Shown here: positions 31,736 through 32,072 of the stretch, in pieces
Layout of the letters: every line of letters starts with the position of its first letter
How positions within the stretch are numbered: position 1 is the stretch's first letter
Origin: an uncultured Christensenella sp.
GTDB lineage: Bacteria > Bacillota > Clostridia > Christensenellales > UBA3700
Direction: 5' to 3'
DNA: 64,000 bases
NCBI GenBank assembly: GCA_949287655.1
Contig: CASEHD010000003.1
Coordinates: forward strand, 6,897 to 70,896
Translations under genes and position numbers: made by a program
The notes under the pieces: model-generated
Seen by the model: the letters and a program-made list of their open reading frames with translations, nothing else
The model's database searches: none
Told to the model about the DNA's origin: nothing

Positions 31736-31753
31736 TGTGAACGTATATTCGCA
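31736..31753 (+). promoter_or_regulatory. SOS-box-like motif, copy 1 (TGTGAACGTATATTCGCA)
   Basis: GAAC-N4-ATTC core, one mismatch from the Gram-positive LexA (Cheo) box GAAC-N4-GTTC. The 5' half is identical to the lexA operator. Confidence 0.5.
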
Positions 31754-31837
31754 GAAGCGTTTCACCTGCACTTTATCGGATCTTACGCTGTTTTTAAATC
31801 TTAATTTAAAATCCGTTGCCGTTTAGCGTAATTTTTA

Positions 31838-31855
31838 TATGAACGTATATTCGCA
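31838..31855 (+). promoter_or_regulatory. SOS-box-like motif, copy 2 (TATGAACGTATATTCGCA)
   Basis: 17/18 identical to copy 1, same orientation, 102 bp downstream. Confidence 0.5.
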
Positions 31856-32054
31856 CGGATTTATATACAAAAAAACATAGCAACGCAATATTATTTATCC
31901 GCATGTTTTCCGATATTTTCAGCAAAACCCGTTTTTGATTCTTCTGATATCCGGCATCGTGAAGATATTGTTGCGTTCGTTTTGAATTGCAACGTACGCG
32001 CACATAGTATTTTTTACGCGTTGATTTAATTATTTCTCCCGTAGACAAATAAAA

Positions 32055-32072
32055 TGTGAACGTAATTTCGCA
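32055..32072 (+). promoter_or_regulatory. SOS-box-like motif, copy 3 (TGTGAACGTAATTTCGCA)
   Basis: 16/18 identical to copy 1, same orientation. Followed directly by a -10-like 'TATGAT'. Confidence 0.5.

Follow-up and report, generated by a model that had tools for sequence, protein, structure and literature searches.

The question raised by this locus is why several sequences resembling a LexA operator should stand together, all pointing the same way, in an intergenic gap beyond the 3' end of lexA. The stretch analysed here, called the window, is 64 kb long and covers C3:6897-70896 of a 1.94-Mb, 32-contig assembly (labelled G000), which the LexA homologues place in Candidatus Ornithoclostridium (order Christensenellales, chicken gut); positions without a contig prefix are those of the window. 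The boxes sit in an 817-bp gap separating two convergent genes, namely a ynbB-like gene of the Met_gamma_lyase family (30439-31674, + strand, Pfam PF06838) and lexA (32492-33121, - strand, Pfam LexA_DNA_bind and Peptidase_S24), and the next gene after lexA encodes a Xer-type tyrosine recombinase (33208-34269, - strand). The two convergent terminators that had been described as flanking the array are both real. On the left border lies the intrinsic terminator of the ynbB-like gene (31694-31733, + strand), whose 15-nt arms at 31694-31708 and 31719-31733 are 93% complementary and followed by a T-run, and box 1 begins 3 nt past it; on the right border lies the intrinsic terminator of lexA, at 32443-32461 (- strand). 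On the far side of the ynbB-like gene, miaA directly precedes it in the window (29459-30439) with no hfq in between, a position after miaA that hfq holds in many Firmicutes.

When the window is searched with TGTGAACGTATATTCGCA at up to 3 mismatches, exactly three matches are returned, all on the + strand: box 1, which is TGTGAACGTATATTCGCA itself (31736-31753, 0 mismatches), box 2, TATGAACGTATATTCGCA (31838-31855, 1 mismatch to the first copy), and box 3, TGTGAACGTAATTTCGCA (32055-32072, 2 mismatches to the first copy). Box 1 is solo, with no ACACGGG core behind it, and box 2 is solo too; box 3 forms the box half of a composite unit. The chance expectation is 0.08 matches, and three or more matches occur in 0 of 100 shuffles. 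The sequence-only reading, which had reported three same-orientation 18-mer copies at 31736, 31838 and 32055 on the + strand with spacings of 102 and 217 bp, is borne out in these respects, as well as in its remarks that every copy is one mismatch from GAAC-N4-GTTC and that the 5' half is common to the lexA promoter box, the TGTGAAC half being found also in the box at 33155-33166. The TATGAT said to follow copy 3 immediately is present, but it starts 2 nt past the end of that copy. In the whole 1.94-Mb assembly there are only two further sites within 3 mismatches, one of them within a gene; a near-exact inverted copy (0-1 mismatch) is found nowhere in it, the only near-match on the opposite strand being one of 2 mismatches within a gene. 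The 18-mer is effectively unique to the lexA-ynbB gap in this assembly.

The array is kept across the genus. In the same gap of all nine close congeners (9/9), (C/T)GAACGTATATTCG is found in 2-6 copies with the same orientation as here. The gene order xer - lexA - convergent ynbB-like is kept in 35 loci, and the lexA-ynbB spacer measures 566-961 bp in the nine close congeners, against 70-130 bp in other genera. Within this spacer the 13-mer carries 1.2-2.0 bits per position, whereas the surrounding and inter-copy sequence carries at most 0.3 bits and is unalignable; since the 13-mer stays informative while the sequence between its copies is scrambled, it is the sites that are under selection, not the region. 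With two further matches as the only exceptions, the exact 13-mers of every genus member are moreover found just at the lexA locus, and in four congeners (L003, L004, L006 and L007) the first member of the array is the canonical CGAACATACGTTTT. Copy number and spacing of the units differ between species. The box spacings fall within 2 bp of whole helical turns in 16 cases out of 25, where about 9.5 are expected; since the phase window was set post hoc, with the data already seen, this phasing is no more than a weak hint. An instructive case is the more distant congener L010 (Ca. O. excrementipullorum, with a LexA 68% identical), whose three boxes, of the CGAACATATATTCG type, are placed in the xer-lexA spacer (L010:3395-3822), in the orientation seen here and with no ACACGGG core, and whose 467-bp lexA-ynbB gap has no boxes. 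Because the boxes of L010 are on the other side of lexA, the constant partner of the array is lexA and not the convergent spacer.

As to the identity of the boxes, Firmicute LexA operators (Cheo or SOS boxes) have the form CGAAC-N4-GTTCG, or GTTT in the right half, and multi-box regions exist, for example lexA-yneA in B. subtilis. The B. subtilis recA operator, CGAATATGCGTTCG, is identical in 13 of 14 positions to the reverse complement of the box, a likeness that we do not use as evidence. Each box of the array combines one perfect half-site, CGAAC, with a weakened aTTCG in place of GTTCG or GTTTG. Its left flank AATGYGAAC equals that of the autoregulatory box of lexA, and its right half is ATTCG or TTTCG, with A in 26 and T in 9 of the 35 boxes and the canonical G in none, in contrast to the real operators of the genus (lexA, dinB, uvrD-like), where the right-half G is invariant as GTTC, GTTT or GTGC. 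A cognate LexA of the CGAAC type is present, with LexA_DNA_bind and Peptidase_S24 domains. Its own promoter TTGCAA-17-TAAAAT (33149-33177, - strand) carries the box GAACATATGTGC (33155-33166) in the spacer; the dinB box CGAACAAATGTTTG, which 14 genomes of the genus have kept, matches the array in the CGAAC half and the AATGYGAAC flank. The lexA box is embedded in TTGCAA-aATGTGAACATATGTGC-TAAAAT, which is identical across the order, and its GTGC is fixed in every genome apparently because the TGc serves as an extended -10, so that an invariant departure from consensus can evidently be imposed by an overlapping function. We also observed that the lexA promoter as a whole, cTTGCAAaATGTGAACAT(A/T)TGTGCTAAAAT, is almost identical across the order (L001-L035).

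The proposed likeness of the motif to a LexA operator therefore stands for the CGAAC half, for the AATGYGAAC flank and for the canonical CGAACATACGTTTT of four congeners, but the right-half G is always absent. The earlier reading had itself held that other SOS boxes excluding the ATTC/TTTC half would speak against LexA, and this is partly what is found, the SOS boxes of the genus always keeping the G. Since the real boxes keep G where the array has A or T, the array boxes would be at best weak LexA sites. In C. difficile, whose operators are among the Firmicute LexA operators compared here (GTTT is allowed in Clostridia), a GAAC-N4-ATTT site is not stably bound by LexA (PMC4234289), and this result together with the missing canonical G implies that LexA may bind the array poorly or not at all. 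That no A-to-G changes are seen points to further selection besides LexA binding, be it on weak affinity itself, on another protein or on the embedded TATATT. We conclude from these likenesses that the boxes are probably LexA-type operators with one half deliberately or tolerably weakened, and we infer that LexA is what binds them. Another LexA as the binder was considered and rejected, for the LexA-like and CI-like genes of the genome are apparently both on mobile elements, which makes these extra S24 repressors unlikely to explain a genus-wide array. The former is a second full-length LexA-like protein (C17:45591-46199, 32% identical, S24 peptidase and wHTH) encoded beside a large serine recombinase gene, and the latter a CI-like HTH-S24 repressor (C3:220937-221686) beside a tyrosine integrase.

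Other candidate LexA boxes in this genome are few, namely those of lexA, dinB, the uvrD-like gene, one upstream of mraZ and one at a sigma-r4-like ORF. No recognisable LexA box is found at recA (C10:30835-31845), which stands behind pgsA-like and cinA-like genes, or at uvrB-uvrA (C15:28271-33104), which stands behind a small ORF, so that the SOS regulon here looks unusually small; with so few other boxes, the array roughly doubles the number of operators. Two of these sites were seen as observations in their own right. A LexA-type box, AATGCGAACAAGTGTTTACATT (C3:129386-129407), lies about 28 nt upstream of the mraZ promoter TTGACA-17-TAGAAT and adjoins GTGG repeats; the gene itself (Pfam MraZ) is at C3:128840-129295 on the - strand, and the box is a hint that, in this lineage, MraZ may connect the SOS response with the cell-division (dcw) cluster. 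The other, a near-perfect LexA box CGAACATTTGTTCA (C10:88481-88494), lies 29 nt upstream of an ORF (C10:87838-88452, - strand) of 191-204 aa with a weak Sigma70_r4_2 match as its sole domain hit, which may be an SOS-controlled regulator.

Could the gap itself contain a gene? The sequence-only reading had suggested an SOS-controlled small RNA or a type I toxin locus, and with no conserved ORF in ten genomes, no Rfam family and no sigma-A promoter at a fixed offset, this suggestion is not supported. Six-frame peptides from the gaps of ten genomes contain no conserved ORF; the similarities between gaps, 11-25 aa long and present in all reading frames, come from the DNA repeat, and a small protein or type I toxin was rejected as the peptides have just this repeat in common. 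Searched against Rfam, the gap gives nothing above E = 0.24, and a known RNA was dismissed after a search to E 1 gave just a sub-threshold Termite-leu match, of 22 bits against a gathering score of 51. When six copies of the dispersed motif treated below and two boxes were folded, no shared structure appeared and the folds were no better than those of shuffles; nor does a consistent fold or terminator come after the units. As for promoters, there is no conserved -35 near the boxes, the best TTGACA match being mostly 3/6 or less, and no sigma-A-like promoter stands at a fixed offset from the box on either strand in 10 genomes; L007, with four boxes, has no promoter-like site at all. A sigma-A promoter was rejected on these two grounds. 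The lexA, dinB, uvrD-like and mraZ promoters all have a TTG-type -35. Sites for ECF, sigma-H, sigma-B and sigma-28 factors, for Rex and CRP, as well as cre, Spo0A, DnaA-box, NBS and parS sites, were dropped by eye for wrong spacing or for being unconserved in congeners. Loci of the tisB-istR or symE type have a conserved hydrophobic ORF or a structured RNA with promoter and terminator, unlike what is seen here.

Besides the box, many units in the congeners contain a second motif. The box is then followed by AAAAC-CT-ACACGGGCA, in which ACACGGG lies exactly 24 nt away from GAAC, counted from its G, and this offset of +24 holds in 16 composite units of congeners. In the window a degenerate copy, gatcgACACGGGtaa, follows box 3 at 32077-32091 (+ strand), its ACACGGG (32082-32088) being again at +24 from GAAC. 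Two box-less copies on the same strand lie further on, namely cgtTTTAACGAACACGCGCGaa (32130-32157), the direct repeat D2 and a member of a genome-wide family, and cgtTTTAACGAACACGGGCAaa (32182-32209), which has the exact core TAACGAACACGGGCA at 32193-32207 (G000:C3:39089-39103). The appearance of the composite units suggests that a segment made of box and core was duplicated in tandem. By-eye reading of the gap sequences shows in addition a conserved block, AGGTTGTAT (32417-32425, + strand), inside the gap beside the lexA terminator; it is kept as AGGTTATAT in L001-L007, and on the - (lexA) strand it resembles, again by eye, the 5' half ATAACCTAC of the dispersed motif.

In fact AAC-NN-ACACGGGCA forms the core of a longer element, a dispersed repeat specific to the genus and about 36 nt in length, with the consensus AAAAA-N2-G-N2-TTTAAC-NN-ACACGGGCA-N-GAAAATTT. 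With 22 nt scored, this genome has 38 copies at 2 or fewer mismatches, 65 at 3 or fewer and 96 at 4 or fewer (for example at C5:7913, C6:69525, C9:156052 and C13:15635), and the exact 15-mer core is found 3-21 times in each of the 15 genomes that represent the genus and never in 26 other genera, with 0-1 matches for its reversed control. At 3 or fewer mismatches of 22, 48 of the 65 copies (74%) are intergenic, 13 being in convergent spacers against 3 in divergent ones; copies lie 1-15 nt past a stop codon in sense or abut the stop in antisense, and sometimes lie within genes. At the 3' end of pfkA the element is at the orthologous position in most sampled members of the genus (clearly in 8; missing in G010 and G008), so that the element is old and constrained, not freshly mobile. 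The neighbours of the copies are functionally unrelated (rpoD, pfkA, argS, murC, spoIIE, the uvrD-like gene).

Several roles for the dispersed motif were tried and set aside. A promoter or regulon is disfavoured by the unrelated flanking genes and by a downstream gene that is co-oriented in 22 of 48 intergenic cases; a replication-oriented signal by the 34:31 split relative to the G-rich strand; a part of a terminator by a terminator being downstream of 25% of copies against 35% of random gene ends; and a known RNA by an Rfam search on 12 copies that gave terminator look-alikes alone. A RAYT-REP system was also rejected, as G000 and 12 of 14 congeners lack PF01797 (Y1 transposase) and the core shows no self-complementarity. 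IS200-type Y1 transposase genes are few in the genus, and one of them (G006:C7:62287-63054) lies about 400 bp from a motif copy, perhaps by coincidence.

The position of the array on the chromosome deserves attention as well. The cumulative GC skew peaks at about 38-40 kb of C3, and the gene orientation flips there, exactly at the ynbB/lexA gap (about 31700-33200 in the window). About 3 kb from the gap, beside the Xer-type gene, lies a dif-like palindrome CTATTCGCAAAA-N6-TTTTGCGAATAG (35405-35440). It had been remarked that the half-site TATTCGCA recurs in the arms of this att palindrome; it is indeed there at 35409 and 35429 (- strand), but with 8 matches in the window against 4.5 expected the recurrence is not significant. 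A Xer/dif half-site was rejected likewise, since once congeners are included just TATTCG is held in common; the GCA flank of the box is unconserved in congeners, and the resemblance of the box to the att/dif arm is coincidence. Decayed IMEX or phage remnants at dif were discarded too, for lexA and/or xer separate the array from dif and the prophage has no such boxes.

The terminus-like setting on which the earlier idea of Ter-like sites had drawn is confirmed, the skew and the gene strand both switching at the gap; however, a fork trap would call for sites facing the other way and for a terminator protein, and the search showed no opposed array in the assembly and no RTP homologue. In its stronger form this idea says that the boxes are polar barriers to replication forks or to transcription, bound asymmetrically by LexA or another winged-helix protein, and besides the skew peak, the gene-orientation flip and the nearby dif-like palindrome it can appeal to the single box orientation, kept even in L010, to the asymmetry of a strong and a weak half-site, and to the helical phasing with its post hoc window. 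We nevertheless regard it as very improbable. Inverted copies form no array across dif or elsewhere in the assembly, the RTP family has no match in 15 genomes of the genus, the copy number is highly variable, and a common orientation is to be expected from tandem duplication anyway. The explanation we favour, though with a confidence short of even, is that the gap would hold a selectively maintained, promoter-less array of low-affinity LexA operators tethered to lexA. The units could have arisen by local tandem duplication, which would explain their common orientation, and in one clade they would have become fused to the core of the genus-specific dispersed repeat. Activated RecA does not cleave LexA that is bound to DNA, and from weak operators the repressor dissociates quickly (PMC4234289). 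At high LexA levels dimers might then fill the array and soon come off it again, so that the array would hold a small DNA-bound repressor pool beside lexA, protected from activated RecA, or could form, where the mutS-mutL-miaA-ynbB operon converges with lexA, a protein barrier that damage would release. We infer that such a pool or barrier would tune the SOS threshold or the recovery. LexA titration, which was among the earlier suggestions, is plausible, yet its capacity would be small: 3-6 sites could accommodate just a handful of dimers, which limits any sponge effect. The model of low-affinity operators does not explain why boxes are fused at a fixed distance to the ACACGGGCA core.

In another view the gap is a BIME-like repeat mosaic in a convergent, terminus-proximal spacer, and the box, being LexA-like just by descent from a duplicated operator, is one module bound by another factor or by none, with no role for LexA. 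We consider this unlikely, yet with a real chance of being right, for its second module is a genuine genus-specific dispersed repeat with the intergenic and convergent preference given above, species differ in how many units they have and in how these are spaced, and the canonical G is never present. However, the box is not dispersed as the core is but confined to the lexA locus, and when the arrangement changes in L010 it follows lexA, without the core. Purifying selection on 13 nt across 10 species amid scrambled flanks argues for a bound site, most members of the genus have no RAYT/Y1 transposase, and the core is not palindromic. The remaining view, in our judgement improbable, takes the box as a LexA-repressed promoter with TATATT as its -10, firing short non-coding RNAs toward the 3' end of lexA; here these LexA-gated RNAs would run antisense to lexA, in L010 to xer, with AAC-NN-ACACGGGCA as their conserved 5' end. 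In its favour are the invariant A (ATTC, not GTTC), which makes TATATT a 5/6 match to the -10 consensus, the orientation of all boxes, always opposite to xer-lexA transcription with L010 included, the conserved core starting about where a transcript would, and a lexA terminator without a T-run on the + strand. On the other side, a conserved -35 is missing from the surroundings of the boxes (TTGACA matches mostly 3/6 or less), and so is a TGn extended -10; no promoter-like site at a fixed offset is found in 10 genomes, with none of any kind in L007, whereas real promoters of the genus have a TTG-type -35; and the units are followed by no consistent terminator or fold and belong to no Rfam family.

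Returning to the low-affinity operators, LexA operators are normally seen as promoter-overlapping switches, and here a cluster has been kept through the lifetime of the genus with no promoter or gene, always with a weakened half-site and always linked to lexA at the terminus. The array is best described as putative LexA operators outside promoters, joined to a genus-specific repeat. If LexA does bind it, we would have here a natural example of decoy or architectural sites through which a repressor governs how much of it is available, or influences chromosome processes nearby; such sites are much discussed for transcription factors and, to our knowledge, rarely documented in bacteria. The analysis moreover brings to light a genus-restricted 36-nt repeat at gene 3' ends, and exposes the SOS regulon of gut Christensenellales as unusually small, with a box that mraZ may have. 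A bolder proposal, which we hold to be doubtful, joins two things, a promoter-less LexA docking platform at the terminus and AAAAA-N2-G-N2-TTTAAC-NN-ACACGGGCA-N-GAAAATTT as a new class of dispersed element. If the former were true, the weakened and asymmetric operators would keep a store of LexA safe from cleavage, or would serve, at the place where forks run into convergent transcription, as a polar barrier that SOS can release, and the damage response would be linked with termination and with the resolution of dimers by the neighbouring Xer/dif module; if the latter, the class would be non-palindromic, RAYT-independent, located at gene 3' ends, confined to a single genus, and read by a DNA- or RNA-binding factor.

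In comparison with known systems, the array resembles Firmicute LexA operators in its 14-bp dyad, its CGAAC half-site and AT-rich 4-nt centre, and in the clustering of several boxes beside lexA, with a LexA_DNA_bind LexA encoded next door. It differs from them in that its right half is always without the canonical G and many boxes are fused at fixed spacing to a second repeat, and in that it overlaps no recognisable promoter, its boxes being placed downstream of lexA, in a convergent spacer without a regulated gene. The BIME/RIP mosaic elements of enterobacteria, in which REP hairpins are combined with an IHF site, are also arrays of short modules in 3' or convergent intergenic DNA, which join a dispersed repeat to protein-binding-site modules and vary in copy number. 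Like REP, the ACACGGGCA module is dispersed, extragenic and found at gene 3' ends and convergent spacers, in contrast to the box with its single locus; unlike BIME/RIP, the dispersed module here is no palindrome and has no GTAG head, most genomes are without RAYT, and the box is at one locus. Compared with the Ter sites of B. subtilis (with RTP) or E. coli (with Tus), the array is likewise asymmetric, at the terminus, and in one orientation on one side of dif, but it has no opposing set and no RTP homologue, and its sequence is unrelated to known Ter sites. Finally, the datA locus of E. coli is a cluster of DnaA boxes away from promoters that controls the availability of its own regulator. The protein and the process are different there, and the present array has only 3-6 predicted sites; still, as a functional analogy, both may be seen as a promoter-less cluster of sites for a master regulator, which would act on the pool of that regulator and not on a neighbouring gene.
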